NCBI RefSeq assembly: GCF_053078305.1
Contig: NZ_CP166879.1
DNA length: 64,000 nt
Reading direction: 5' to 3' (one strand)
Shown: positions 80 to 31,104 of the stretch, one piece after another
Numbering within the stretch: position 1 is the first letter of the stretch
Layout: every line of letters starts with the position of its first letter
The notes under the pieces: model-generated
What the model was told of the DNA's origin: nothing
What the model saw: the letters and a program-made list of their open reading frames with translations, nothing else
The model's database searches: none
Program-made: the position numbers and the translations under genes

Positions 80-1351
80 TTCGAGCATTTTGCGGATCTG
101 CTCCTGTTGATGTGTTGTCAGTGTCAGGTCCGTATAGATCAGCGGTGGTGAAAAGAGCGGTAACGGCATGGTATAAGGAGCAATAATCAGTGCCGCGCCA
201 CGCGGAGCGCCTGTCTGCAAAAATGCCTTTACCGACATATGTTTAATGTTGAGCGGCAGTAACGTTAGTTCGCGTAACTGCTGCTCAATCTGCGCTTCTC
301 GCTCGCTATCATTCCCGGTCAGTAGAATAATCTGTTTTTCATGCAGATCGTTTTCCTGCATTAGCCAGGCACCGAAAATCACCGCGACCAGACCACTTTC
401 CTCATCAGAAAGATGGACGCCGTATTCACTTTCAAATCCGGCCAGCGCCGCGCGGGTGGTGCGTACCAGGCGTGGATACAGTCTGGCGAACTCTTCCGGC
501 AGGGTATTATCAATACCGATGGCAAACAAACTGCGATTTAACGCCTGGGCGAGGTGGGTATAAAGCTGATCACATAACCCCTGTTCATCATAAAAACAAA
601 CATTTCCCAGCTCACGAAAATGGTTTACCAGACGTTTGATAGACTGACGCAATTGTCTGTCCCGCTGATGCGCATCCCGCAATGGATCGGGAACCCGCAA
701 CATGGAAAAAAGTAGTGCCATAAACAGTGGCTCATCAGGTGGTACAGGCTGGAGCGCCCGACGCTGCCAGTGGCGTCCAATTTCCTGCGCTACCTGAAAT
801 TCAAGGCAGGATTCCGCCCAGCGACGTTGGAGCGGATTAAACTGAGGCGTAATTCCAGCGTGGTGCTGCAGCAAACAATATTGCAGATACAGACACAGGA
901 AATGAATATCGCGCGATTCAAAGCGTTTTTGCAGCCGTCGGGAGCAGAGATTCACTAACGCTTGTAGATTGGTATCGTCGTAAAAGTTACGCGCAATTCC
1001 GCGCCGCTTCAGTTCACTCTTCAGGGCGGGGGTGAATTGGCTGGTAATAAATGACGGACACAGACGGAAACCACGTCGTAGCCAGTGAAATAAACACAAA
1101 CGTTGGTTAAGCACTGTACCTTCAACCCGGTAGCTACCGTCATAACCAGTCGTCAGTGTGAGTTGATGATAGCGCAGGATCTCCCGTCCTGTTTCGCTGA
1201 TATCAAGACTGGCAATATCATCATCCACACCATTAAGCTCGCTGAAGGTTGCCATGGTGGCGGTCAACCCCGGCTGAAAGAGCGTCAGCAAGATCTGGCA
1301 GCGGCGCTGGGGAGCCGAAAGGACAGATGGTGGAGCAAGCGTAGGCATCAT
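71..1351 (-). CDS. csiE: stationary-phase inducible protein CsiE (PRD-domain protein)
   Basis: ORF track 71..1372; recognised protein begins at internal MMPTLAPPSV giving 426 aa. Confidence 0.8.
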   Translation of the reverse strand: MMPTLAPPSVLSAPQRRCQILLTLFQPGLTATMATFSELNGVDDDIASLDISETGREILRYHQLTLTTGYDGSYRVEGTVLNQRLCLFHWLRRGFRLCPSFITSQFTPALKSELKRRGIARNFYDDTNLQALVNLCSRRLQKRFESRDIHFLCLYLQYCLLQHHAGITPQFNPLQRRWAESCLEFQVAQEIGRHWQRRALQPVPPDEPLFMALLFSMLRVPDPLRDAHQRDRQLRQSIKRLVNHFRELGNVCFYDEQGLCDQLYTHLAQALNRSLFAIGIDNTLPEEFARLYPRLVRTTRAALAGFESEYGVHLSDEESGLVAVIFGAWLMQENDLHEKQIILLTGNDSEREAQIEQQLRELTLLPLNIKHMSVKAFLQTGAPRGAALIIAPYTMPLPLFSPPLIYTDLTLTTHQQEQIRKMLESA

Positions 1352-1541
1352 CTGTAGATCTCCCATAAGCATAATTGATAAGAATAGCTAAAGTTTGCTC
1401 AGGGAAATGGCGAAGGGAATGCTAATCATCAGAAATGTTGGCAAGCGTCACAGAATTTTTCTCATCTTAAACTGTTCTGACCAGTGGATTAGCATGTCTT
1501 AAGGTGGTTTTGTGAATGATTATCGTGCTAGCGATCATGGG

Positions 1542-2540: not shown

Positions 2541-3344
2541 TTAACGCTTCAGAGCGTCGCTTAACTCGTCACGCATGTTCGCCAGCATGGCTTTAACAAC
2601 ACGCGGGTTACCAGCAACGATGTTACCGGTCAGCATATAGTTATGACCACCGGTGAAGTCGCTGACGATGCCGCCCGCTTCACGAACCAGCAGCTCGCCT
2701 GCAGCGAAGTCCCACGGGCGCAGACCGATTTCAAAGAAACCGTCAACACGACCCGCAGCGACGTAAGCCAGATCCAGCGCCGCAGAACCGGTACGACGGA
2801 AGTCTGCACATTCGTTGAACAGTTTGCCGACGATGTTGATGTAGGTAGTGGCGTACTGTTTTGCTTTGAACGGGAAGCCGGTCGCCAGAATAGTACCGTC
2901 GAGATCGCGAGCGGTGCTGCCGCGCAGACGGTAGCCGTTCAGCTGTGCGCCCTGACCGCGAGTGGCGGTGAACAGTTCGTTACGCATAGGATCGTATACC
3001 ACAGCAACTTCGGTGCGGCCTTTGATACGAACGGCGATAGATACCGCGAAGTGCGGCAGACGTTTGATAAAGTTGGTAGTGCCATCCAGTGGATCGATAA
3101 CCCATTGAACATCCTGATCAGTACCTTCAAGTTCACCGCTTTCTTCGGTGATGATGGTGTGCTGTGGGTAAGATTTACGAATCGTGTCGATAATCACCGC
3201 TTCGGCAGCTTTATCTACGTTGGTCACGAAATCGTTACTGCCTTTCTGGCTCGCTTCTACAGCGTCCGGGGTTTCATAGTTTTTGGCAATTAAATTACCC
3301 GCCTTGCGCGCTGCGCGCACGGCGATGTTCAGCATCGGATGCAT
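2541..3344 (-). CDS. suhB: inositol monophosphatase SuhB
   Basis: 267-aa ORF, IMPase motifs (WVIDPLDGT), synteny. Confidence 0.9.
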   Translation of the reverse strand: MHPMLNIAVRAARKAGNLIAKNYETPDAVEASQKGSNDFVTNVDKAAEAVIIDTIRKSYPQHTIITEESGELEGTDQDVQWVIDPLDGTTNFIKRLPHFAVSIAVRIKGRTEVAVVYDPMRNELFTATRGQGAQLNGYRLRGSTARDLDGTILATGFPFKAKQYATTYINIVGKLFNECADFRRTGSAALDLAYVAAGRVDGFFEIGLRPWDFAAGELLVREAGGIVSDFTGGHNYMLTGNIVAGNPRVVKAMLANMRDELSDALKR

Positions 3345-3462
3345 CGGTCTCTCTCACTGGATGTTAAAGAACGGGAAAACGGCGCAGAGTATAGCAGCGA
3401 GATCGGCATCTGTCTTCGTTTTATGATAAGATGCGCGAATAATCTTTAGACGAAGAAAGACA

Positions 3463-4203
3463 ATGCTGCAAAATATTCGAATTGTGCTGGTGGAGACGTC
3501 ACACACCGGCAATATGGGTTCTGTTGCCCGTGCCATGAAAACAATGGGATTAACCAATCTGTGGCTGGTTAATCCACTGGTGAAACCTGACTCCCAGGCT
3601 ATTGCCCTGGCGGCGGGGGCCAGCGATGTGATTGGTAATGCTCACATCGTCGATACGCTCGACGAAGCGTTAGCCGGTTGTAGCCTGGTGGTGGGCACCA
3701 GCGCACGTTCCCGCACGCTGCCGTGGCCGATGCTCGACCCGCGCGAATGCGGTCTGAAAAGCGTCGCTGAAGCGGCAAATACCCCGGTGGCGCTGGTCTT
3801 TGGTCGCGAGCGCGTCGGCTTGACCAATGAAGAGTTGCAGAAATGCCATTATCATGTCGCGATTGCGGCAAACCCGGAATACAGTTCGCTGAACCTGGCA
3901 ATGGCGGTTCAGGTTATTGCCTATGAAGTGCGTATGGCCTGGCTGGCAACTCAGGAAAATGGCGAGCAGGTCGAGCATGAAGAGACGCCGTATCCGCTGG
4001 TCGATGATCTGGAGCGTTTTTATGGTCATCTGGAACAAACGCTGCTGGCAACCGGTTTTATCCGTGAAAACCATCCGGGGCAGGTGATGAATAAATTGCG
4101 CCGTCTGTTTACCCGTGCGCGCCCGGAAAGCCAGGAATTGAATATCCTGCGCGGGATTCTGGCTTCTATAGAGCAGCAGAATAAAGGTAATAAGGCCGAA
4201 TAA
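3463..4203 (+). CDS. trmJ: tRNA (cytidine/uridine-2'-O)-methyltransferase TrmJ
   Basis: 246-aa SPOUT-family ORF divergent from suhB. Confidence 0.9.
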
Positions 4204-4961: not shown

Positions 4962-5072
4962 TAAAAAGAATTCAGAATCAGGCCGGAGTGCTAAATACTC
5001 CGTAAACACGGTCGTACATCCAGCCGGTAGCCTGATTCCTTGCATTGAGTGATGTACGGAGTTTATAGAGCA

Positions 5073-7668: not shown

Positions 7669-9519
7669 ATGGCCTTATTACAAATTAGTGAACCTGGTTT
7701 GAGTGCTGCGCCGCATCAGCGTCGTCTGGCGGCCGGTATTGACCTGGGCACAACCAACTCGCTGGTGGCGACAGTGCGCAGCGGTCAGGCCGAAACGTTA
7801 GCCGACCATGAAGGCCGTCACCTGCTGCCATCTGTTGTTCACTATCAACAGCAAGGGCATTCGGTGGGTTATGACGCGCGTACTAATGCAGCGCTCGATA
7901 CCGCCAACACAATTAGTTCTGTTAAACGCCTGATGGGACGCTCGCTGGCTGATATCCAGCAACGCTATCCGCATCTGCCTTATCAATTCCAGGCCAGCGA
8001 AAACGGCCTGCCGATGATTGAAACGGCGGCGGGGCTGCTGAACCCGGTGCGCGTTTCTGCGGACATCCTCAAAGCACTGGCGGCGCGGGCAACTGAAGCC
8101 CTGGCAGGCGAGCTGGATGGTGTAGTTATCACCGTTCCGGCGTACTTTGACGATGCCCAGCGTCAGGGCACCAAAGACGCGGCGCGTCTGGCGGGCCTTC
8201 ACGTCCTGCGCTTACTTAACGAACCGACCGCTGCGGCTATCGCCTACGGGCTGGATTCCGGTCAGGAAGGCGTGATCGCCGTTTATGACCTCGGTGGCGG
8301 GACGTTTGATATTTCCATTCTGCGCTTAAGTCGCGGCGTGTTTGAAGTGCTGGCAACCGGCGGTGATTCCGCGCTCGGCGGCGATGATTTCGACCATCTG
8401 CTGGCGGATTACATTCGCGAGCAGGCGGGCATTCCTGATCGTAGCGATAACCGCGTTCAGCGTGAACTGCTGGATGCCGCCATTGCAGCCAAAATCGCGC
8501 TGAGCGATGCGGACTCCGTGACCGTTAACGTTGCGGGCTGGCAGGGCGAAATCAGCCGTGAACAATTCAATGAACTGATCGCGCCACTGGTAAAACGAAC
8601 CTTACTGGCCTGTCGTCGCGCGCTGAAAGATGCGGGTGTTGAGGCTGACGAAGTACTGGAAGTGGTGATGGTGGGCGGTTCTACTCGCGTGCCGCTGGTG
8701 CGTGAACGGGTAGGCGAATTTTTCGGTCGTCCACCGCTGACTTCCATCGACCCGGATAAAGTCGTCGCTATTGGCGCGGCGATTCAGGCGGATATTCTGG
8801 TGGGTAACAAGCCAGACAGCGAAATGCTGTTGCTTGATGTGATCCCACTGTCGCTGGGCCTCGAAACGATGGGCGGCCTGGTGGAGAAAGTGATTCCGCG
8901 TAATACCACTATTCCGGTGGCCCGCGCTCAGGATTTCACCACCTTTAAAGATGGTCAGACGGCGATGTCTATCCATGTAATGCAGGGTGAGCGCGAACTG
9001 GTGCAGGACTGCCGCTCACTGGCGCGTTTTGCGCTGCGTGGTATTCCGGCGCTACCGGCTGGCGGTGCGCATATTCGCGTGACGTTCCAGGTCGATGCCG
9101 ACGGTCTTTTGAGCGTGACGGCGATGGAGAAATCCACCGGCGTTGAGGCGTCTATTCAGGTCAAACCGTCTTACGGTCTGACCGATAGCGAAATCGCTTC
9201 GATGATCAAAGACTCAATGAGCTATGCCGAGCAGGACGTAAAAGCCCGAATGCTGGCAGAACAAAAAGTAGAAGCGGCGCGTGTGCTGGAAAGTCTGCAC
9301 GGCGCGCTGGCTGCTGATGCCGCGCTGTTAAGCGCCGCAGAACGTCAGGTCATTGACGATGCTGCCGCTCACCTGAGTGAAGTGGCGCAGGGCGATGATG
9401 TTGACGCCATCGAACAAGCGATTAAAAACGTAGACAAACAAACCCAGGATTTCGCCGCTCGCCGCATGGACCAGTCGGTTCGTCGTGCGCTGAAAGGCCA
9501 TTCCGTGGACGAGGTTTAA
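7669..9519 (+). CDS. hscA: Fe-S cluster chaperone HscA (Hsp70 family)
   Basis: ORF track 7615..9519; recognised start [10 protein letters not shown] at 7669; 616 aa. Confidence 0.95.
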
Positions 9520-10126: not shown

Positions 10127-11410
10127 ATGACAGAAGCGATGAAAATTACCCTTTCTACCCAACCTGCCGACGCGCGCTGGGGAGAAAAAGCAACTTACAG
10201 CATTAATAATGATGGCATTACCCTGCATTTGAACGGGGCAGACGATCTGGGGCTGATCCAGCGTGCGGCGCGCAAGATTGACGGTCTGGGCATCAAGCAT
10301 GTTCAGCTAAGCGGTGAAGGCTGGGATGCGGATCGCTGCTGGGCATTCTGGCAAGGTTACAAAGCCCCGAAAGGCACGCGTAAAGTGGAGTGGCCGGATC
10401 TGGACGATACCCAGCGCCAGGAACTCGATAACCGCCTGATGATCATCGACTGGGTGCGTGACACCATCAACGCACCGGCGGAAGAGCTGGGGCCATCGCA
10501 ACTGGCACAGCGTGCTGTTGATCTGATCAGCAACGTCGCGGGCGATCGTGTGACTTATCGGATCACCAAAGGCGAAGATCTGCGTGAGCAAGGTTATATG
10601 GGGCTGCACACCGTCGGACGCGGTTCAGAACGTTCTCCGGTATTGCTGGCGCTGGATTACAACCCAACTGGCGATAAAGAAGCGCCAGTGTACGCGTGCC
10701 TGGTAGGTAAAGGTATCACTTTTGACTCCGGTGGCTACAGCATCAAACAGACTGCGTTTATGGACTCGATGAAGTCGGACATGGGCGGCGCGGCAACGGT
10801 TACCGGGGCGCTGGCATTTGCCATTACGCGCGGACTGAACAAGCGCGTGAAGCTGTTCCTCTGCTGTGCGGATAACCTGATTAGCGGCAATGCGTTCAAG
10901 CTGGGCGATATCATCACCTATCGCAACGGTAAAAAAGTTGAAGTGATGAACACTGATGCCGAAGGGCGTCTGGTGCTTGCCGATGGTCTGATTGATGCCA
11001 GTGCGCAGAAACCGGAAATGATCATTGATGCGGCGACCCTCACCGGGGCGGCGAAAACTGCGCTGGGTAATGATTATCACGCGCTGTTCAGTTTTGACGA
11101 TGCGCTTGCCGGTCGTTTGCTGGCGAGTGCCTCACAAGAGAACGAACCATTCTGGCGTCTGCCGCTGGCGGAATTCCACCGCAGCCAGCTGCCGTCTAAC
11201 TTTGCCGAACTGAACAATACCGGAAGCGCGGCGTATCCGGCAGGCGCGAGCACGGCAGCGGGCTTCCTGTCGCACTTTGTTGAGAACTATCAGCAAGGCT
11301 GGCTGCATATCGACTGCTCGGCGACTTACCGTAAAGCGCCGGTTGAACAGTGGTCTGCGGGTGCTACGGGACTTGGTGTGCGCACGATTGCTAATCTGTT
11401 AACGGCGTAA
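10127..11410 (+). CDS. pepB: aminopeptidase B PepB (M17 family)
   Basis: 427-aa ORF, leucyl aminopeptidase motifs. Confidence 0.9.
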
Positions 11411-11418
11411 ACTAATAT

Positions 11419-11518
<100 letters not shown>

Positions 11519-11543: not shown

Positions 11544-12329
11544 GTGGTTCTTATGTCCGAAACAAAAAATGAACTTGAAGACCTGCTGGAAAAAGCAGCA
11601 ACCGAACCGGCGCACCGCCCGGCCTTTTTCCGTACTCTACTGGAATCCACCGTCTGGGTGCCTGGTACGGCGGCGCAGGGCGAGGCTGTGGTTGAAGATA
11701 GCGCGCTTGATTTACAGCACTGGGAAAAAGAAGACGGCACCAGCGTCATTCCTTTTTTTACCTCGTTAGAAGCACTTCAACAGGCGGTTGAAGACGAACA
11801 GGCATTTGTCGTAATGCCCGTTCGCACATTGTTTGAGATGACCCTTGGCGAAACGCTCTTCCTTAATGCCAAACTGCCGACCGGTAAAGAATTTATGCCG
11901 CGTGAAATCAGTTTGTTGATTGGTGAAGAGGGAAATCCGCTGAGCAGCCAGGAAATCCTGGAAGGCGGTGAATCGCTGATATTATCGGAAGTCGCAGAGC
12001 CGCCAGCACAAATGATTGATTCACTCACCACCTTATTTAAAACCATTAAGCCTGTGAAGCGTGCTTTTATTTGTTCAATTAAAGAGAACGAAGAGGCACA
12101 GCCTAATTTACTTATTGGCATTGAAGCCGATGGTGATATCGAAGAAATTATTCAGGTGGCGGGAAGTGTAGCGACCGATACATTACCTGGCGATGAACCA
12201 ATCGATATTTGTCAGGTGAAAAAAGGGGAAAAAGGAATTAGCCACTTTATTACCGAACATATTGCGCCATTCTATGAACGTCGCTGGGGTGGTTTTTTGC
12301 GTGACTTTAAACAGAATCGGATAATCTAA
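11544..12329 (+). CDS. sseB: serine sensitivity enhancing protein SseB
   Basis: 261-aa ORF; synteny; alternative start at 11553 (MSETKNE). Confidence 0.8.
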   Translation: MVLMSETKNELEDLLEKAATEPAHRPAFFRTLLESTVWVPGTAAQGEAVVEDSALDLQHWEKEDGTSVIPFFTSLEALQQAVEDEQAFVVMPVRTLFEMTLGETLFLNAKLPTGKEFMPREISLLIGEEGNPLSSQEILEGGESLILSEVAEPPAQMIDSLTTLFKTIKPVKRAFICSIKENEEAQPNLLIGIEADGDIEEIIQVAGSVATDTLPGDEPIDICQVKKGEKGISHFITEHIAPFYERRWGGFLRDFKQNRII

Positions 12330-12646
12330 AATATGCCGCCCCAAAGGGCGGCATTCGGGCTTACCTGCTGCTCTGAAGGTTGTTAATCACCAGTAAATTG
12401 TTACCGGAGAGACTCCGGTTATTATTTACCTCGGTTAACAGCGCACCAGAAACAATAAGTACGATACAAAAGCACCGTATCTTCATTGTGCGGTCCATGC
12501 GAAGACCGCATCACGACAGCACCACTGGCGATATTGCCGCGATAGCAAGCGCTGTGAAACACCTGCATTTACGGCCACGGAACATCCTTTCCTAAAGCCA
12601 GCGCCCGTTTGCGAGACGGCGGAAAGGGCCGGTGTCGATAATACGC
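12330..12646 (-). ncRNA. ryfA: ryfA-like RNA copy 1 (candidate small-protein mRNA, TimP/RyfA family)
   Basis: location between sseB and sseA; minus-strand terminator hairpin at 12332-12353; conserved internal hairpins; predicted length ~300 nt; 5' end inferred. Confidence 0.45.
12361..12498 (-). CDS. 45-codon small hydrophobic ORF inside ryfA-like copy 1 (MDRTMKIRCFCIVLIVSGALLTEVNNNRSLSGNNLLVINNLQSSR), candidate small membrane toxin
   Basis: hand-translated minus strand; conserved in copy 2 with 2 synonymous and 2 conservative changes; not in ORF track (below size cutoff). Confidence 0.4.
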   Translation of the reverse strand: MDRTMKIRCFCIVLIVSGALLTEVNNNRSLSGNNLLVINNLQSSR

Positions 12647-12661
12647 TAAATAAACAATAAT

Positions 12662-12704
12662 TACTCTCTTTTGCTTGACAAAAAGAGAGTTGCTGGCGAA
12701 TATT
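12662..12704. promoter_or_regulatory. palindromic divergent promoter region of ryfA-like locus copy 1
   Basis: inverted repeat ACTCTCTTTT-GCTTGAC-AAAAGAGAGT centred on TTGACA (plus) / TTGTCA (minus) -35-like hexamers. Confidence 0.35.
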
Positions 12705-12709
12705 GCTCT

Positions 12710-12812
12710 GCTGTGAAGCACCTGCGTTGCTCATGCAACACAAGTCAATCTGCTGGAGAGGCCGCGAACCAAACCGGCAACAAATAACCGCCTGATTTTG
12801 GCGGTTTTTTGT
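12710..12812 (+). ncRNA. candidate short plus-strand sRNA divergent from ryfA-like copy 1
   Basis: TTGACA-N18-AATATT promoter-like sequence at 12675-12704 and hairpin+T6 terminator at 12786-12812; internal hairpin GTTGC-loop-GCAAC conserved in copy 2 with loop change. Confidence 0.3.
12786..12812. terminator. bidirectional rho-independent terminator (copy 1)
   Basis: AACCGCC-TGATTT-GGCGGTT followed by TTTTTT. Confidence 0.55.
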
Positions 12813-12930
12813 TGCTTAAAGAAAGTGAATTTACATGTTTAAGTAATATCTTTTACCGGTTAGTATTTTTAATATTGAGCGGGATTTGTTTATATTTGTC
12901 TGAATTCGGACTAATAAGCCAGGTTATTTT

Positions 12931-13010
12931 ATTACTGACATATTGCGCCATTCTATGAACGTCGCTGGGGTGGTTTTTTGCATCACTTTAAACAGAATCG
13001 GATAATCTAA
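12931..13010 (+). pseudogene. duplicated 3' fragment of sseB carried on repeat unit 2
   Basis: near-identical to sseB codons for ...HIAPFYERRWGGFLRDFKQNRII* but without upstream gene. Confidence 0.55.
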
Positions 13011-13327
13011 AATATGCCGCCCCAAAGGGCGGCATTCGGGCTTACCTGCTGTTCTGAAGGTTGTTGACCACCAGTAAATTGTTGCCGGAGAGACTCCGGT
13101 TATTATTTACCTCGGTTAACAGCGCACCAGAAACAATAAGTACGATACAGAAGCACCGTATCTTCATTGTGCGGTCCATGCGAAGACCGCATCACGACAG
13201 CACCACTGGCGATATTGCCGCGATAGCAAGCACTGTGGGGTGCCTGTATTTACGGTCATGGAACATCCTTTCCTAAAGCCAGCGCCCGTTTGCGAGACGG
13301 CGAAAAGGGCCATTAAGAATAATACTC
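13011..13327 (-). ncRNA. ryfA: ryfA-like RNA copy 2
   Basis: 681-bp offset copy of 12330..12646 with conserved terminator hairpin at 13013-13034. Confidence 0.4.
13042..13179 (-). CDS. 45-codon small hydrophobic ORF, copy 2 (…VVNNLQNSR)
   Basis: same frame and length as 12361..12498; differences F(ttt>ttc) and G(ggt>ggc) synonymous, I>V and S>N conservative. Confidence 0.4.
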   Translation of the reverse strand: MDRTMKIRCFCIVLIVSGALLTEVNNNRSLSGNNLLVVNNLQNSR

Positions 13328-13391
13328 TCATGTTTGAATAATTACTCTGTTTATTATCTTGACACAGCCAGGCATAAAAGAGAGTATTTCA

Positions 13392-13495
13392 ACACTGTGG
13401 GGTGCCTGCGTTGCTCCGGCAACACAAGTCAACCTGCTGGAAAGGCCGCGAACCAGACCAGCAATAAAAAACCGCCAAATTCGGCGGTTTTTTAT
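13392..13495 (+). ncRNA. candidate short plus-strand sRNA, copy 2
   Basis: homolog of 12710..12812 ending at hairpin AAAAACCGCC-AAATTC-GGCGGTTTTT. Confidence 0.3.
13466..13495. terminator. bidirectional terminator shared by sseA and ryfA-like locus
   Basis: perfect hairpin flanked by A6 and T6, 15 bp beyond sseA stop. Confidence 0.6.
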
Positions 13496-13509
13496 TGCCT
13501 GTAAAAAGC

Positions 13510-14355
13510 TTATTTCAATGGCTCAACCGGTAAATCTGCCCGCGCGCCCCATTCACTCCATGCGCCGTCGTACAGTTTCACGTTTGGCACATCCAGCGTC
13601 GCGAGTGCCAACAAAACCACGGCTGCTGTTACACCAGAGCCGCAGCTGACGATAATCGGTTTGTCATAGCTGACGCCGCGACCAAAAAATATCGCATCCA
13701 GTTCATCGGTCGTTTTTAGTTCGCCTTCGCGCACCAGTTCCGTCCACGGAACGTTCAATGCACCTGGAATATGTCCGCGACGTAAACCTGGGCGAGGTTC
13801 ATCAACTTCTGCGTTAAAACGTGCAGCCGGGCGGGCATCAATAATTTGCGCCGTATTTTCATGGCTTGCCAATAACACATCGGTTACTTTCACCACTACT
13901 TCAGGATTAAACGCGGCGTTAAACTCTCCTTCCGGCAGCTCTACTGCACCTTCTTCTAACAACAGATCATCGCGCTGCCAGCCTGCAAGTCCACCCCCCA
14001 GAATCGACACTTTCTCTACACCAAAGGTGCGCAGCATCCACCATGCTCGTGGGGCTGAGAAAAGATTACCTTCGTCATAGACAATCAGGTGCTTATCCTG
14101 GTTAACGCCTAATTCACGCATCGCCACGGCGAACGTTTCCGGGCGCGGCAGCATGTGCGGAAGCGGGGAAGTGTGATCAGAAAGCGCTTCGATATCAAAA
14201 AACACTGCGCCGGGAATATGTCCATTCAGATACTCCTGAGCAACGTTACGATCTTCCTGTCCAGGCGACGCCATGCGGGCATCGATAATCTGAATTTCCG
14301 GGTCATCAATATGTTCGGCGAGCCAGTCGGCTCCTACAAACCATGTCGTGGACAT
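13510..14355 (-). CDS. sseA: 3-mercaptopyruvate sulfurtransferase SseA
   Basis: ORF track 13510..14514; recognised start MSTTWFVGADWL gives 281 aa; rhodanese CSGSGVTA motif. Confidence 0.9.
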   Translation of the reverse strand: MSTTWFVGADWLAEHIDDPEIQIIDARMASPGQEDRNVAQEYLNGHIPGAVFFDIEALSDHTSPLPHMLPRPETFAVAMRELGVNQDKHLIVYDEGNLFSAPRAWWMLRTFGVEKVSILGGGLAGWQRDDLLLEEGAVELPEGEFNAAFNPEVVVKVTDVLLASHENTAQIIDARPAARFNAEVDEPRPGLRRGHIPGALNVPWTELVREGELKTTDELDAIFFGRGVSYDKPIIVSCGSGVTAAVVLLALATLDVPNVKLYDGAWSEWGARADLPVEPLK

Positions 14356-21999: not shown

Positions 22000-24381
22000 A
22001 TGGATACGCCAGACGAAAAGGAACGCATTACATTTCCGCAAGTATCACGACGTAGTTTTTTACAAGCGACTTCCGCGCTTATCACTTTGCCTTTTATTTC
22101 TTATACCGTAAAGGCGCAATCCCCAGATGCGTCGCCAGAAGTTACAGCTCCAGTAGCTGATAAAGTCGTGCCCACCTGTAGCACATTTGACTGCGGTGGT
22201 AAGTGCGATATTCGGGCGCATATGCGCGACGGTGTGGTGACGCAAATTACCACGCTTCCCGATAACGAACTGGATCCACAAATGCCGATTATGCGCGCCT
22301 GTGTTCGTGGTTGCGGCTATCGTAAATTTGTTTATCATCCAGACCGCCTCAAATATCCGATGAAACGGGTCGGTAAACGGGGCGAGGGGAAATTTGAGCG
22401 TATTTCATGGGATGAGGCGACGACCTTAATTGCCGATAACCTGAAAAGGATCACGCAACAATATGGCCCGGCTTCACGTTATGTCCATGTCGGGACGGCT
22501 GTTTCTGGTGGAACATTTTCTGGTGATGCGATGGCGCGTCGGCTGTTAAATTTAACCGGTGGTTATCTTGAATATTATCACTCAGTTAGTCTGGGTAATA
22601 CTGCGGCGGCAACGCCTTACACGTATGGCGTGGCGGCCAGCGGTAACTCGATGGATACTCTTCTGGATACCAAACTGGTGATCCTCTGGGGGCATAACCC
22701 AACGGAAACCATCTTCGGTCACACCAATTACTTTTTTCAAAAAATGAAGCAAAACGGTACGCGTTTTATCGTGGTAGATCCGCGTTATTCCGACACTGTA
22801 TCTTCGCTTGCCGATCAGTGGATCCCGCTGCTGCCGACCACGGACAATGCGTTGATGGACGCGATGATGTACGTCATTATCAGCGAAAATCTCCACAATA
22901 AGACATTTATCGACACATATACTCTCGGTTTTGATGAAAACTCTATGCCAGAAGGCGTACCAGCCAACGAATCGTTGGTTGCCTACCTTTTTGGCGCAAA
23001 AGATGGGATACACAAAACGCCGGAATGGGCAGAAAAAATTACCCACGTTCCAGCACAATCCATTCGTCAACTGGCACGCGATTACGCCACTACAAAACCC
23101 GCAGCGTTGATTCAGGGATGGGGGCCACAGCGACATATTTGCGGCGAACGCACCGCCCGAGGTTCAACTTTACTGGCCTCGATTACCGGTAACGTCGGCA
23201 TCAAAGGTGGCTGGGCGGCAGGTTACGGCGGTAGTTCTAATCGTAAATTCTGCGTTGGACCAGATATGCCAGAAAATCCGGTACAAGCGAAAATCTCGAT
23301 TATGAACTGGATGCAGGCGGCGGATGATGCTTCTAAAGTTACGCCGCAAGATGGGCTTAAAGGTGTCGATAAACTCGACAGTAATATCCGCCTGCTGTTC
23401 TCACTGGCAGGTAATTATCTGGCGAACCAGAACCCGGACGTCCACCAGGCCGCGAAGCTCCTTGAAGACGAATCTAAAATAGAATTCATCGTACTCAGCG
23501 ATCTGTTCATGACTCCGAGCGCGAAATATGCCGATGTGTTGCTGCCGGAAACCAGCTTTATGGAACGCTGGAATATCGGCGAAACATGGGGAACTGCGAG
23601 CTATCTTATTCTGTCAGAAAAACTGATTGAGCCGGATTTTGAACGTCGCACCGATTATGACTGGTTGCGTGACGTGGCGAAAAAACTGGGTGTCGAAGCC
23701 GAGTTCAGTCAAGGACGTGATGAGAAGCAATGGGTAGAGCATATCTGGGAGCAAACTCGTCTGGCGATGCCGGATGAAAATTTGCCGGACTTCGCGACCC
23801 TGCAAAAAACACGTCGACATCTTTTTAAAAGTGCGCCGCACATCGCTTTCGAAGCAAATATTCGCGATCCGCAGAATAATCCTTTCCCGACGCCTTCCGG
23901 CAAAATTGAGATCTTCTCTAAGCGTCTTTTTGATATGCAAGATCCAGAAATTCCCGCGCTTTCGCACTATGTCCCTGCATTTGAAGGGCCAGAAGATAAA
24001 CTGACGGCGAAATACCCGTTGCAGCTCATCACCTGGAAAGGGAAAAACCGTGCTAATTCCACCCAGTATGCTAACCCGTGGCTGCAAGAAGTTCAGACGC
24101 AAAAACTCTGGCTGAATCCGCAAGATGCAAAACAGCGCGGGATTAGCGAAGGAGATAGCGTAAAAATTTATAACGATCGTGGTGTGAGCATTATCCCGGT
24201 GGAAATAACCCCCCGTATCATCCCTGGCGTAGTTGCTATGCAGGCGGGGGCATGGTGGCAACCGGATGCACAAGGTATCGATCGCGGAGGCTGTGCCAAT
24301 GTACTGAGTTCGACCCGCATTACGGCGCTGGCGAAAGGGAATTCGCATCAAACAATGCTGGTGGAGGTTGAGAAAGCATGA
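22000..24381 (+). CDS. molybdopterin (DMSO reductase family) oxidoreductase catalytic subunit with Tat signal
   Basis: 793 aa; SRRSFLQATSAL twin-arginine motif; N-terminal CxxCxxxC Fe-S motif (CSTFDCGGKC). Confidence 0.85.
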   Translation: MDTPDEKERITFPQVSRRSFLQATSALITLPFISYTVKAQSPDASPEVTAPVADKVVPTCSTFDCGGKCDIRAHMRDGVVTQITTLPDNELDPQMPIMRACVRGCGYRKFVYHPDRLKYPMKRVGKRGEGKFERISWDEATTLIADNLKRITQQYGPASRYVHVGTAVSGGTFSGDAMARRLLNLTGGYLEYYHSVSLGNTAAATPYTYGVAASGNSMDTLLDTKLVILWGHNPTETIFGHTNYFFQKMKQNGTRFIVVDPRYSDTVSSLADQWIPLLPTTDNALMDAMMYVIISENLHNKTFIDTYTLGFDENSMPEGVPANESLVAYLFGAKDGIHKTPEWAEKITHVPAQSIRQLARDYATTKPAALIQGWGPQRHICGERTARGSTLLASITGNVGIKGGWAAGYGGSSNRKFCVGPDMPENPVQAKISIMNWMQAADDASKVTPQDGLKGVDKLDSNIRLLFSLAGNYLANQNPDVHQAAKLLEDESKIEFIVLSDLFMTPSAKYADVLLPETSFMERWNIGETWGTASYLILSEKLIEPDFERRTDYDWLRDVAKKLGVEAEFSQGRDEKQWVEHIWEQTRLAMPDENLPDFATLQKTRRHLFKSAPHIAFEANIRDPQNNPFPTPSGKIEIFSKRLFDMQDPEIPALSHYVPAFEGPEDKLTAKYPLQLITWKGKNRANSTQYANPWLQEVQTQKLWLNPQDAKQRGISEGDSVKIYNDRGVSIIPVEITPRIIPGVVAMQAGAWWQPDAQGIDRGGCANVLSSTRITALAKGNSHQTMLVEVEKA

Positions 24382-25007
24382 GCCAATTTAAAGAATTTGC
24401 ATCTGTCAGCGACAAACAATTAGGGTTCTTTATTGACTCTTCGCGTTGTTCTGGCTGTAAAGCGTGTCAGGTGGCCTGTAAAGACAAAAACAACCTTGAG
24501 GTTGGGCGACGTTTTCGCCGCGTGTATGAAGTGAACGGCGGTGGCTTCATCGCCACTGGAGAGGGCGGTGTGAGTCATAATGTCTTTGCTTATACCCTTT
24601 CTGTTTCCTGTAACCATTGCGCGGATCCGATCTGTACCAAAAATTGCCCGACGATGGCGATGCATAAGCGTCCCGGAGACGGCATTGTGCGCGTGAATAC
24701 TGATAAGTGCGTCGGTTGCGGTTACTGCGCCTGGTCCTGTCCTTACGGCGCACCACAAATGAATGAGCAGACCGGGCAGATGTCGAAATGCGATTTCTGT
24801 ATTGATCTGCAAGCTAAAGGAGAACAACCCATTTGCGTGGCAACGTGCCCGTTGGGGGCGATTAAGTTCGGCCCTATTGATGAGTTGCGTGAAAAGTATG
24901 GCGATGTCAGTGATGTGAAAGGTTTACCTGATTCGTCGATTACGCAGCCAAATCTGGTGATTAAACCGCATCAGGGCGCGGAAAAGGAGGCGTCACATCA
25001 TGCATGA
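24378..25007 (+). CDS. 4Fe-4S ferredoxin-type electron transfer subunit (DmsB-like)
   Basis: 209 aa with multiple CxxCxxCxxxCP motifs; ATGA overlap with upstream gene. Confidence 0.85.
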   Translation: MSQFKEFASVSDKQLGFFIDSSRCSGCKACQVACKDKNNLEVGRRFRRVYEVNGGGFIATGEGGVSHNVFAYTLSVSCNHCADPICTKNCPTMAMHKRPGDGIVRVNTDKCVGCGYCAWSCPYGAPQMNEQTGQMSKCDFCIDLQAKGEQPICVATCPLGAIKFGPIDELREKYGDVSDVKGLPDSSITQPNLVIKPHQGAEKEASHHA

Positions 25008-25821
25008 ATTACCGTTAATGGCTTTTACGCTGTTGTTACAGGCATCGGTCGGTATGACGTTGTGGCTGGCGTTTCTTCATCGTCATATTTTAATCACCTC
25101 CAGTGCCCGCCCGGTTATGCGACCGCCATTACTGTTGGCTTTTTTGGCCGGGGCAGTAGGGTTACTGATTTCTACCTTACACCTGGGTTATCCACTTAAT
25201 GCGATGCATGCGCTAAGTCACTTTTCCAGTTCATGGCTGAGTCGGGAAATTATCTTTGGTGCGCTGTATCTGGCGCTATTGGGTTTAACCACATTACTGG
25301 TCATGTTACACAAAGGCGGCTGGCAACTCCTTCTTATGCTAGCGGCAGTGGTCGGAATTGTTGATGTTTTCTGCATGGCGCAAGTTTACATCCATACGTC
25401 GATTATCACCTGGCAGCATTACAACACGCTGATTATGTTCTTAGGTACAGTGGGAATTCTCGGTTCAGCGCTGGTAGCAGTGTTTCGTATTAGCGGAATT
25501 TTGCCGCAGATTGATGCCCTGCGTAATGGATGCGTGTTGGTGATCGCTCTCCTGGTTCTGTTGCGCTTGTTGGTTCAGCCGTTGTGGGTAGGGGATTTAA
25601 CGGCGAATGCGATGCAGATAGCTACACTGCCACATGCGCCATTAGCGATGCTGGGACAGTTAAAACCCATACTGACACTAAGCTGGGGAATTTCCGTCAT
25701 TGGGATGATGTTCTTTGCTGTCGGTGGTTGTAAAAAGAATATCCCTGCGGCGTTATTCGGTAGCGTACTGCTAGTGGGCAGTGAAGTTATGCTGCGTTTT
25801 GTCTTTTTTAGTATCGGCTAA
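25000..25821 (+). CDS. integral membrane anchor subunit (DmsC-like)
   Basis: 273 aa, highly hydrophobic multi-TM; 8-bp overlap with upstream gene. Confidence 0.75.
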   Translation: MHELPLMAFTLLLQASVGMTLWLAFLHRHILITSSARPVMRPPLLLAFLAGAVGLLISTLHLGYPLNAMHALSHFSSSWLSREIIFGALYLALLGLTTLLVMLHKGGWQLLLMLAAVVGIVDVFCMAQVYIHTSIITWQHYNTLIMFLGTVGILGSALVAVFRISGILPQIDALRNGCVLVIALLVLLRLLVQPLWVGDLTANAMQIATLPHAPLAMLGQLKPILTLSWGISVIGMMFFAVGGCKKNIPAALFGSVLLVGSEVMLRFVFFSIG

Positions 25822-26675
25822 TGTTAAGTCATAACATAACGATTGGCGCGGAATGCGCGCGCCAACGCTTTCGTTTTGCAACATGTCATGCCTGTGTCGA
25901 GGCTTGCCCGGCACAGGCGCTAACGCTGACAGAAGAGGGCATAGCGGTCGACGCGGAACAATGTATTGAGTGTGCGGTTTGCCAGTTTATTTGTCCGCAA
26001 GAGGCTATTCGTGGCGTTAATTCCCCTTTACGTTATTTTCGCAATCACACCCTGGTCGCACCTTTCACCACTATTGCGCCGACGCTGGAAGAACTTTTGC
26101 TATGGCATAAAGAGCAGGGGATCACAGCGATCGCGATTGATCTGAGTCAGGCGAAGGCATGGGAGCGCGCATTATTGCTGTTAAACGAACGCTTACGGCA
26201 ATATGGCGAGGAAGGCTGGTCTGTGGTATCTCCACATACCAGTGAGGTGAATGTTTCCCGGCGTCGTTTGTTCCATGTGCAGCGTGCGGATGTTCAGATG
26301 ACACAAATACAACCAGGATTACGTCGGTTACATTATTTATGGCCCCAGATTAGTGATGCTCGCCCGATGATGGATCCTCAAAAGTGTCAGCTTTGCGGTG
26401 CATGCTGGCGGGCCTGCGAGCAACAGGTCTTTTCGCTTAACGAAGGCCATTTACAAATCAATGATGCCTTGTGTAACGGATGCCAAAATTGTATTGCTGT
26501 TTGTTTTCATCAGGCAATGACCGTTGAATTGACGATTCTACCGGCAAAAATTGTGAATCTTCATGCTAATCGCAAAGTCTGTAAAACCTGTCAAAAATCC
26601 TTTCTTACTTTTCAGCAAAATGCGCAAAATTGTCTTTATTGCCAACGTCATCGCTATGGGATGAGAGCACCATAA
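25821..26675 (+). CDS. cysteine-rich ferredoxin-like protein, fourth gene of the operon
   Basis: 284 aa; motifs CHACVEACP, CIECAVCQFICP, CQLCGACWRAC, CNGCQNCIAVC; TAATG stop/start overlap. Confidence 0.7.
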   Translation: MLSHNITIGAECARQRFRFATCHACVEACPAQALTLTEEGIAVDAEQCIECAVCQFICPQEAIRGVNSPLRYFRNHTLVAPFTTIAPTLEELLLWHKEQGITAIAIDLSQAKAWERALLLLNERLRQYGEEGWSVVSPHTSEVNVSRRRLFHVQRADVQMTQIQPGLRRLHYLWPQISDARPMMDPQKCQLCGACWRACEQQVFSLNEGHLQINDALCNGCQNCIAVCFHQAMTVELTILPAKIVNLHANRKVCKTCQKSFLTFQQNAQNCLYCQRHRYGMRAP

Positions 26676-29875: not shown

Positions 29876-30994
29876 ATGCATAACCAGGCTCCAATTCAAC
29901 GTAGAAAATCAACACGTATTTACGTTGGGAATGTGCCGATTGGCGATGGTGCTCCCATCGCCGTACAGTCCATGACCAATACGCGTACGACAGATGTCGA
30001 AGCAACGGTCAATCAAATCAAGGCGCTGGAACGCGTTGGCGCTGATATCGTCCGTGTCTCCGTACCGACGATGGACGCGGCAGAAGCGTTCAAACTCATC
30101 AAACAGCAGGTTAACGTGCCGCTGGTGGCTGACATCCACTTCGACTATCGCATTGCGCTGAAAGTAGCGGAATACGGTGTCGATTGTCTGCGTATTAACC
30201 CTGGCAATATCGGTAATGAAGAGCGTATTCGCATGGTGGTTGACTGTGCGCGCGATAAAAACATTCCGATCCGTATTGGCGTTAACGCCGGATCGCTGGA
30301 AAAAGATCTGCAAGAAAAGTATGGCGAACCGACGCCGCAGGCGTTGCTGGAATCCGCCATGCGCCATGTTGATCATCTCGATCGCCTGAACTTCGATCAG
30401 TTCAAAGTCAGCGTGAAAGCGTCTGACGTCTTCCTCGCTGTTGAGTCTTATCGTTTGCTGGCAAAACAAATCGATCAGCCGCTGCATCTGGGGATCACCG
30501 AAGCGGGTGGCGCGCGCAGCGGGGCAGTAAAATCCGCCATTGGTTTAGGTCTGCTGCTGTCTGAAGGCATCGGCGACACGCTGCGCGTATCACTGGCGGC
30601 CGATCCGGTCGAAGAGATCAAAGTCGGTTTCGATATTTTGAAATCGCTTCGTATCCGTTCGCGAGGTATCAACTTCATCGCCTGTCCGACCTGTTCGCGT
30701 CAGGAATTTGATGTTATCGGTACAGTTAACGCGCTGGAGCAACGCCTGGAAGATATCATCACTCCGATGGACGTTTCGATTATTGGCTGCGTGGTGAATG
30801 GCCCGGGTGAGGCGCTGGTATCTACACTCGGCGTCACCGGCGGCAACAAGAAAAGCGGTCTCTATGAAGATGGCGTGCGCAAAGACCGTCTGGACAACAA
30901 CGATATGATCGACCAGCTGGAGGCACGCATTCGTGCGAAAGCCAGTCAGCTGGACGAAGCGCGTCGAATTGACGTTCAGCAGGTTGAAAAATAA
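29876..30994 (+). CDS. ispG: HMBPP synthase IspG
   Basis: 372-aa [26 protein letters not shown]. Confidence 0.95.
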
Positions 30995-31104
30995 TAACGT
31001 GATGGGAAGCGCCTCGCTTCCCGTGTATGATTGAACCCGCATGGCTCCCGAAACATTGAGGGAAGCGTTGAGGGTTCATTTTTATATTCAGAAAGAGAAT
31101 AAAC

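Follow-up and report, generated by a model that had tools for sequence, protein, structure and literature searches.

Two head-to-tail timP/timR (ryfA/ryfB) units between sseB and sseA, each with its own recognition sequence and a matching antitoxin seed

We analyzed a 64,000-nucleotide stretch of contig NZ_CP166879.1 (NCBI RefSeq assembly GCF_053078305.1; the window) and focused on the interval between sseB and sseA, which a first-pass annotation, made from the letters alone, had described as a tandem duplication of the ryfA small RNA (sRNA) locus. We conclude, with a probability of roughly 0.87, that this region carries two complete head-to-tail timP/timR (ryfA/ryfB) type I toxin-antitoxin units, in each of which the antitoxin RNA TimR mainly silences its own toxin. 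Both units have four features by which members of the timP/timR system are recognized: a match to the Rfam family RF00126, a match to the NCBIfam model NF040796, a divergent sRNA gene of ∼100 nt, and a position between sseB and sseA. The tandem ryfA genes themselves are already known from Shigella dysenteriae. The features of the locus are collected in Table 1.

A repeat search paired positions 12257-12556 with 12938-13237 (300 nt, 97% identity, gap-free, 681-bp spacing) and, in a second and more diverged block, 12698-12809 with 13382-13493 (78% identity). As a whole, the repeat extends over 12257-12810 and recurs at 12938-13493. Alignment with MAFFT paired 12250-12810 with 12931-13493 and left 12811-12937 unmatched after the second copy. 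The direct repeat and its 681-bp offset are thus as first described, but the proposal that a ∼681-bp unit is present twice holds only in part: unit 2 is shorter than unit 1 and lacks a 128-bp spacer, and the sseA stop codon lies 17 nt past its terminator. Similarly, the duplicated end of sseB, placed by the first-pass annotation at 12931-13010 (∼26 codons), is present but spans only 73 nt, from 12938 to 13010, or 24 codons and the stop. The equivalent of this sseB' fragment is annotated as a partial SseB pseudogene in RefSeq records of matching loci. Tandem Repeats Finder reported nothing at the repeat; because the 681-bp period exceeds the longest period allowed (500 bp), this silence is no argument against it.

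Both ryfA copies, each 305 nt long, match RF00126 over its full length on the minus strand and far above its gathering score of 80, in agreement with the ryfA-like identity proposed earlier. Copy 1, the 5' end of which we placed at 12632, is identical to K-12 ryfA at 292 of 304 positions, and copy 2 is 98.4% identical to the single copy of O157:H7. Each includes a 126-nt timP coding sequence of the same extent as RefSeq timP in related genomes, and both products score well above the NF040796 cut-off of 45 bits. The two TimP peptides differ at two residues, both C-terminal. RefSeq annotates two timP genes in matching Escherichia coli genomes.

Divergent from each timP lies a gene for the sRNA TimR (RyfB); the earlier description overlooked these genes as well as the compensating changes in their seeds. 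The TimR 5' end maps to 12710, 6 nt downstream of the timR1 promoter. Nucleotides 1 to 17 of TimR1 form a seed, GCUGUGAAGCACCUGCG, that we call type A, and the predicted fold is weakly structured at the 5' end, with only a 3-bp helix within nt 1 to 10. For timR2, we read by eye a TTGACA at 13359-13364 with AGTATT as the −10 element, and the terminator hairpin was seen in the predicted fold. The TimR2 seed, ACUGUGGGGUGCCUGCG (type B), equals the RyfB1 primer sequences of the S. dysenteriae study (PMC5333039). The genes, their open reading frames (ORFs), the timR promoters and terminators, and the co-varying complementarity described below can all be read directly from the DNA.

The ryfA copies differ at 17 of 305 positions (94.4% identity) with no insertions or deletions, close to the ∼15 substitutions and ∼95% identity first reported. 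These differences are not scattered, as had been stated, but clustered: nine of the 17 fall inside the 29-nt TimR target (12550-12578), where ∼1.6 would be expected and identity drops to 69%. By comparison, the terminator and 3' untranslated region (UTR) and 63 nt of the 5' UTR are 100% identical between copies, 114 of the 117 positions of the 5' UTR beyond the TimR target are identical, and the timP ORF has five substitutions in 126 nt, which change two amino acids. Identity falls to 58% in the back-to-back promoter region and is 83% for TimR. In the RNA sense, the variable region reads UGUUU in unit 1 (type A, RyfA2-like and shared by K-12) and CACCC in unit 2 (type B, one of three “RyfA1-like” types of PMC5333039).

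All five differences between the TimR1 and TimR2 seeds mirror differences between the targets. Predicted folds place both targets in a hairpin, where they make up the 5' arm and loop, and leave most of the TimR seed unpaired. Core duplexes with the own partner reached −37.3 kcal/mol (A) and −36.9 kcal/mol (B), and over the longer windows folded with duplexfold they comprised 24 bp (A) and 21 bp (B), the seed and target regions being 15 to 17 nt. When partners were swapped, mRNA B with TimR A gave −16.1 kcal/mol, and mRNA A with TimR B gave −29.7 kcal/mol with five G.U pairs. A third type found in other genomes, C (CGCGU), gave −41.9 kcal/mol with its own partner, and off-diagonal values were −17 to −31 kcal/mol. 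We dropped RNAduplex on long stretches (140 nt by 60 nt), which returned unrealistic energies of −46 to −61 kcal/mol with large loops, and used core windows instead.

We also compared nine distinct units from E. coli, Escherichia sp. E1V33, Escherichia whittamii, and one further Escherichia species representative. Over 17 intermolecular pairs, 94.8% of cells were standard pairs and seven pairs had changed on both sides; slid registers were only 25 to 47% paired, and the observed covariation score was reached in none of 500 shuffles. Target and seed type matched in every intact unit examined. Based on the mirrored target and seed differences and on the duplex energies, we therefore regard the units as two largely insulated toxin/antitoxin pairs; most likely they are separate modules, not redundant copies, with the degree of insulation estimated from base pairing. 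We predict unequal insulation in the two directions, since foreign TimRs can form wobble pairs with the U-rich type A site.

In the mechanism that we propose, a TimR/RyfB RNA of ∼100 nt would be transcribed opposite to timP from the shared back-to-back promoter region, and its first ∼17 nt would pair with the hairpin in the timP 5' UTR and block translation. As in Salmonella, the block may act by destabilizing a pseudoknot that is required for translation initiation. Each TimR complements the recognition sequence of its own unit (UGUUU in unit 1 and CACCC in unit 2), so each antitoxin should mainly silence its own toxin mRNA. By analogy with the relatives described below, both units are probably expressed in this genome and both toxins are probably active.

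The Salmonella homolog indeed encodes the small toxic protein TimP under TimR repression, as the first-pass annotation had stated. Salmonella TimP, an inner-membrane peptide that depends on Sec, is toxic upon overproduction, and the 5' region of TimR pairs by 18 nt with the timP 5' UTR, as proven in vivo and in vitro by compensatory mutants (PMC7667032). Translation of timP in Salmonella requires an SL1-SL3 pseudoknot, which TimR binding destabilizes, and a structural switch involving sites 1 to 4 (PMC11228461; PMC13000454). The system of Salmonella Typhimurium (Andresen et al. 2020, PMC7667032; PMC11228461; PMC13000454) belongs to the same RF00126 and NF040796 families as the window units. 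Its TimR is likewise divergent and non-overlapping, pairs through its 5' end with ∼17 to 18 nt of the toxin 5' UTR, and is trans-encoded within the locus rather than a true antisense RNA. Unlike the window, with two units and different recognition sequences, Salmonella has only one unit, and STM2534, an additional gene, lies between its sseA and timP. By its location in the timP 5' UTR and its pairing with the TimR 5' end, the target in timP mRNA 1 is the counterpart of the Salmonella 18-nt site (PMC7667032).

The closest published counterpart is the RyfA1/RyfA2 and RyfB1/RyfB2 system of S. dysenteriae (Fris et al. 2017, PMC5333039), which occupies the same locus with two tandem ryfA genes that are ∼95% identical; such sibling copies are described in S. 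dysenteriae and a few other isolates, and the first-pass annotation had correctly cited them for S. dysenteriae. The S. dysenteriae copies share with the window a 5-nt variable region, TGTTT in one copy and GC-rich in the other, with four variants listed, including CACCC. They also share a divergent ryfB gene of ∼100 nt upstream of each ryfA, the complementarity of which overlaps the variable region. The cloning and 5' UTR primers for RyfA1 and the primers for RyfB1 match unit 2 of the window. We considered whether the window could represent the published strain and rejected this idea, because the published ryfA1 probe GCAGGCCCCCCACAG has CCCCC where the window sequence ACAGGCACCCCACAG has CACCC; a further G/A difference lies 5' of the variable region. 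The window thus has the same architecture with a different allele, and its CACCC variant pairs perfectly with the RyfB1-type seed. Tandem ryfA1/ryfA2 genes with their own ryfB, the variable region, and the specificity of RyfB1 are therefore already known, having been published in 2017 (PMC5333039). In S. dysenteriae, both RyfA copies are expressed, according to copy-specific reverse transcription-PCR (RT-PCR), and overproduction of RyfB1 lowers RyfA1 but not RyfA2 (PMC5333039). The authors treated the RyfA RNAs as non-coding.

Multi-copy type I loci with cognate-specific antitoxins also include zorO-orzO (two copies in O157:H7), ibs/sib, and ldr/rdl of E. coli. Like the window locus, these are tandem or dispersed paralogous small toxins, each with its own sRNA and with cross-talk limited through short complementarity. 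They differ in that their toxin and RNA families are unrelated; in the window, the antitoxin is divergent and non-overlapping, and the specificity types segregate as alleles of one chromosomal site. The zorO-orzO pair is also cited in PMC5333039.

Table 1. Positions of features at the sseB-sseA locus within the 64,000-nt window
Feature	Position	Strand	Basis or remark
sseB (enhanced serine sensitivity protein)	11553..12329	+	ORF list; RefSeq annotation of matching loci
Last 73 nt of sseB, left end of repeat unit 1	12257-12329	+	Repeat starts at 12257
ryfA/timP mRNA copy 1	12328..12632	-	Rfam RF00126, 320.6 bits, model positions 1-296 of 296
timP ORF 1, 41 codons: MKIRCFCIVLIVSGALLTEVNNNRSLSGNNLLVINNLQSSR	12361..12486	-	NCBIfam NF040796 (toxic_TimP), 88.6 bits
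TimR target in timP mRNA 1	12551..12567	-	Complementary to TimR1 nt 1-17
timR1 sigma-70-like promoter: TTGACA, 18-nt spacer, AATATT	12675..12704	+	Promoter scan, 10/12 matches
timR1/ryfB-like antitoxin sRNA, ∼101 nt	12710..12810	+	85/100 identical to K-12 timR b4811
timR1 intrinsic terminator, then U-run	12786-12806	+	Terminator scan
Rfam IS128 (RF00125) match	12768-12977	-	210 bits; spacer and flanks; model positions 1-45 align poorly
AT-rich 128-bp spacer, after unit 1 only	12811..12937	none	Block unaligned in MAFFT
sseB' fragment, left end of unit 2: last 24 codons and stop duplicated, 2 substitutions	12938..13010	+	
ryfA/timP mRNA copy 2	13009..13313	-	Rfam RF00126, 323.1 bits, model positions 1-296 of 296
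timP ORF 2, 41 codons: MKIRCFCIVLIVSGALLTEVNNNRSLSGNNLLVVNNLQNSR	13042..13167	-	NCBIfam NF040796, 84.2 bits
TimR target in timP mRNA 2 (RNA sense UACAGGCACCCCACAGU)	13232..13248	-	Complementary to TimR2 nt 1-15, weaker beyond
timR2/ryfB1-like antitoxin sRNA, 100 nt	13394..13493	+	91/100 identical to K-12 timR b4811
sseA (3-mercaptopyruvate sulfurtransferase), right boundary of locus	13510..14355	-	ORF list; RefSeq annotation of matching loci

A ryfA query matched 5590 places in 5425 complete E. coli genomes, corresponding to ∼165 extra copies, with ∼3% of genomes carrying at least two and a maximum of three. Of 5426 complete E. coli genomes, 2217 contain the spacer and 1970 the type A target; the spacer was absent from the other Escherichia species examined. 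We parsed 15 loci for unit features with blastn-short. A type A unit (target A, seed A) and spacer followed by the sseB' fragment and a type B unit (target B, seed B) was the arrangement of the window and of the complete genomes GPT24-02 and PapRG-06-5, and the same leading unit and spacer preceded sseB' and a type C unit in 23CRST026, KN13-4, and 4973. Single B units occurred in O157:H7 and YZMc3-1, and single C units occurred in ST131 and 0H24. Among the matches listed from a scan for a GC-rich stem pattern, most were chance hits in unrelated phyla and ∼10 enterobacterial loci were usable, a thin outgroup sample that did not include Salmonella. The loci examined from other Escherichia species and other genera had one unit, either B-like or type C, and no spacer. 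Because these types occur as single units in other Escherichia, the specificity classes should be older than the array, and the B-like and C ones probably arose before E. coli did. The promoter and TimR of unit 2 (196 nt) are identical to the O157:H7 single-copy allele at all 196 positions, 95% identical to Escherichia sp. E1V33 and another species representative, and only 73% identical to unit 1. Capture of an existing allele is therefore likelier than simple duplication in place. We infer that unit 2 is an ordinary single-copy B allele to which an A-type unit and its spacer were joined by recombination, with the junction inside the 3' end of sseB; the near-identical sseB' and timP body points to gene conversion or constraint.

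What the RyfA RNAs do can also be seen in another way, which is compatible with a toxin-antitoxin function but which we consider unlikely: they could be mainly trans-acting “sibling” regulatory sRNAs with separate target sets, RyfA1 lowering ompC mRNA for example, with RyfB/TimR as an anti-sRNA and the TimP ORF incidental. Overproduction of RyfA1 in S. dysenteriae abolished ompC mRNA and cell-to-cell spread, no reporter protein was detected from RyfA1, and the RNA was read as a regulator of ompC (PMC5333039). A study of uropathogenic E. coli reported that ryfA phenotypes did not depend on the TimP ORF and that the mutant could still be complemented by ryfA variants in which this ORF was disrupted (PMC8205139). 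The variable region, lying in a hairpin arm and loop, could double as an sRNA seed. These reports count against two self-silencing toxin-antitoxin units, as does the prospect that TimR B may cross-repress toxin A (−29.7 kcal/mol via five G.U pairs), the duplex energies being values that disregard intramolecular structure and pseudoknot-dependent binding kinetics; our origin scenario, for its part, rests on ∼20 loci. Nevertheless, both ORFs are intact, pass the curated TimP model, and differ by only five substitutions in 126 nt and two amino acids, and the TimP protein, its toxicity, and its TimR-dependent translational repression have all been demonstrated in Salmonella. In addition, the variable region co-varies with TimR and with no known mRNA target.

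How the two units came to lie side by side allows several further readings. The first-pass annotation had suggested an old duplication or the import of one copy, which is reasonable, and the evidence leans toward import or allele capture (196/196 identity to O157:H7 against 73% to unit 1). Simple tandem duplication in place, followed by diversifying selection on the recognition module and gene conversion elsewhere, with no allele captured, would account for the head-to-tail units and for a junction that bears a piece of the sseB 3' end, as expected after a segmental duplication; for the arrays of one, two, and three units that suggest unequal crossing-over; and for a timP body that is 97 to 100% identical between units. 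We nonetheless find this history improbable. Identity ranges from 100% to 58% between segments, the promoter and TimR of unit 2 are the exact O157:H7 allele and closer to other Escherichia species than to unit 1, B and C types occur as single units in those species, and the 128-bp spacer was not found after unit 2, in single-unit genomes, or in the outgroups examined. Equal units, uniform divergence, and one novel junction, as expected of a simple recent segmental duplication, were not what we found. It is very improbable that the units are redundant products of a recent neutral duplication shaped by drift alone. The high ryfA identity (94.4%) and the two residue differences between TimP peptides would fit, but the differences cluster in the target with compensating changes in the partner gene, the A/B unit pairing is conserved in unrelated genomes, and RyfB1 discriminates RyfA1 from RyfA2 experimentally. 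Least credible of all, to the point that we set it aside, is a mis-joined or mis-expanded repeat in the assembly. Repeats this long can mis-assemble from short reads, and nothing more specific speaks for an artefact. At least 17 positions distinguish the copies, whose partner genes and flanks are also distinct, and both transcripts were seen by RT-PCR in S. dysenteriae. The two-unit layout also recurs in the independently finished genomes GPT24-02 and PapRG-06-5, the latter with a junction 100% identical to that of the window, and therefore is no assembly artefact.

An identical two-copy structure is absent from K-12, a comparison that the first-pass annotation had asked for. One ryfA does lie between sseA and sseB in K-12 (ryfA b4440, timP b4812, timR b4811), as had been stated, but the locus appears to be a degraded two-unit array and not a simple single-copy locus. 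K-12 MG1655 (NC_000913.3 2653340-2654160) has one timP, with a type A target, and two timR-like genes. The order, which is the same in WP7-S17, is type A timP, type C timR, the spacer, a 15-nt relic of a timP 5' end, and a type A timR beside sseA. The timR adjoining ryfA carries a type C seed, GCUGAGACGCGC, whose cognate toxin is absent, and the annotated timR b4811 is the type A, cognate one, 400 bp from ryfA. Relative to the window, K-12 has the same flanking genes, an identical type A timP target, and a spacer that is 96.5% identical, but it lacks the second unit from the sseB' fragment onward, the deletion stopping 15 nt before the timP 5' end. The K-12 gene called “RyfB” in PMC4606813 is presumably another gene than the ryfB/timR of this locus.

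The Rfam family IS128 matches K-12 with 261 bits (1216-1424, plus strand, of the extracted locus), covering the timP 5'-end relic, the spacer, and, in antisense, the terminator of the type C TimR. The part of the model that aligns poorly in the window corresponds in K-12 to the relic 5' end and promoter side of the deleted timP; the window has the sseB' fragment there, and the presumed K-12 promoter is therefore absent. We considered a third sRNA gene at the window match and rejected it as unsupported; the match there comprises only the spacer with its flanks. The IS128 family appears to be the scar of a deleted second timP unit in K-12-type genomes and not an independent conserved sRNA. An AT-rich ORF of ∼49 amino acids in the spacer (12809-12958) partly overlaps the sseB' fragment and is unannotated in any related genome.

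Combining these comparisons, we offer a broader and tentative view, to which we give slightly less than even odds. The sseB-sseA site would be a recombining array of one to three timP/timR cassettes, which fall into three or more classes insulated from one another, among them A (UGUUU), B (CACCC), and C (CGCGU). The K-12-type layout would be a degraded two-unit array with an orphan type C TimR, and IS128 would be the scar of its deleted toxin. This layout would account for ∼36 to 38% of complete E. coli genomes, an estimate from the type A target in 1970 genomes and the spacer in 2217 less ∼165. Orphan antitoxins could protect the cell from incoming cassettes of a different class (anti-addiction) or could serve as a buffer for the promiscuous type A mRNA. 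In the literature searched, the coverage of which was incomplete, we found no description of the cassette-array view, the K-12 orphan antitoxin, or the IS128 scar.

Several further loci illustrate the variety at this site. E. coli GF4-3 (NZ_CP053258.1; 1141-2946 of the extracted locus) carries three complete tandem units in the order C-A-B, with matched targets and seeds and with two sseB' fragments and two spacers between them. In E. coli 06-00048 (2260-2412 of the extracted locus) and Citrobacter amalonaticus (∼8071-8216), the timP body is fused to timR via the 17-nt target/seed direct repeat, with loss of both promoters and 5' ends; this fusion looks like a recurrent route of unit inactivation. 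In E. coli 06-00048, ISEcB1 is also inserted in the TimR terminator. In E. coli 2022N21-074-17 (1546-1833 of the extracted locus), the only unit is of type C; after it come a partial spacer and another timR-like gene, whose 5' sequence is yet another, degenerate one (GAGTAGACGAGATACACTTGC) and which may represent a further specificity class or a decayed copy. In E. whittamii (3254-3564 of the extracted locus), the conserved ryfA body lies ∼310 nt from the sseB stop, versus ∼130 nt in E. coli, which suggests an insertion in or beside the ryfA 3' region.

There is little new in the tandem finding itself, which was published in 2017 and is reflected in two timP genes in RefSeq annotation; the cassette-array view and the K-12 orphan antitoxin with the IS128 scar are the only possibly new points. 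The locus offers a natural example of a type I pair that was copied and apparently shielded from its twin by five or six base changes on both partners, which could be of use in studies of sRNA specificity and in the design of orthogonal RNA regulators. Many “ryfA” or “timR” experiments use K-12-like or extraintestinal pathogenic E. coli strains, and strains differ in how many timR genes they carry, in the specificity class of these genes, and in how far they lie from timP. Therefore, timR deletion phenotypes, or RyfA phenotypes compared across pathotypes, can differ in meaning by background.

The locus is flanked by pepB and sseB on the left and by sseA and yfhM on the right, in the ORF list as in matching loci. 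The closest complete E. coli genomes reach at most 98.8% identity over the locus and at most 99.4% over a 21.5-kb flank. The window comes from an Escherichia/Shigella lineage that is not represented among them. Elsewhere in the window, between pbpC and the ndk side, we observed a four-gene operon of the dimethyl sulfoxide (DMSO)/selenate-reductase family at 22000-26675. Only 380 of 5426 complete E. coli genomes cover at least 80% of the 21.5-kb stretch that includes it, which is therefore an accessory segment. A repetitive extragenic palindromic (REP)-like inverted repeat lies between pepB and sseB (11405-11518; arms 11439-11467 and 11473-11501), with sub-threshold Rfam matches to naRNA4/CssrE and ES036. 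Two expected conserved RNAs were also detected, the iscR stability element iscRS (4962-5071; 138 bits) and the sRNA sroE (30994-31085; 117 bits).

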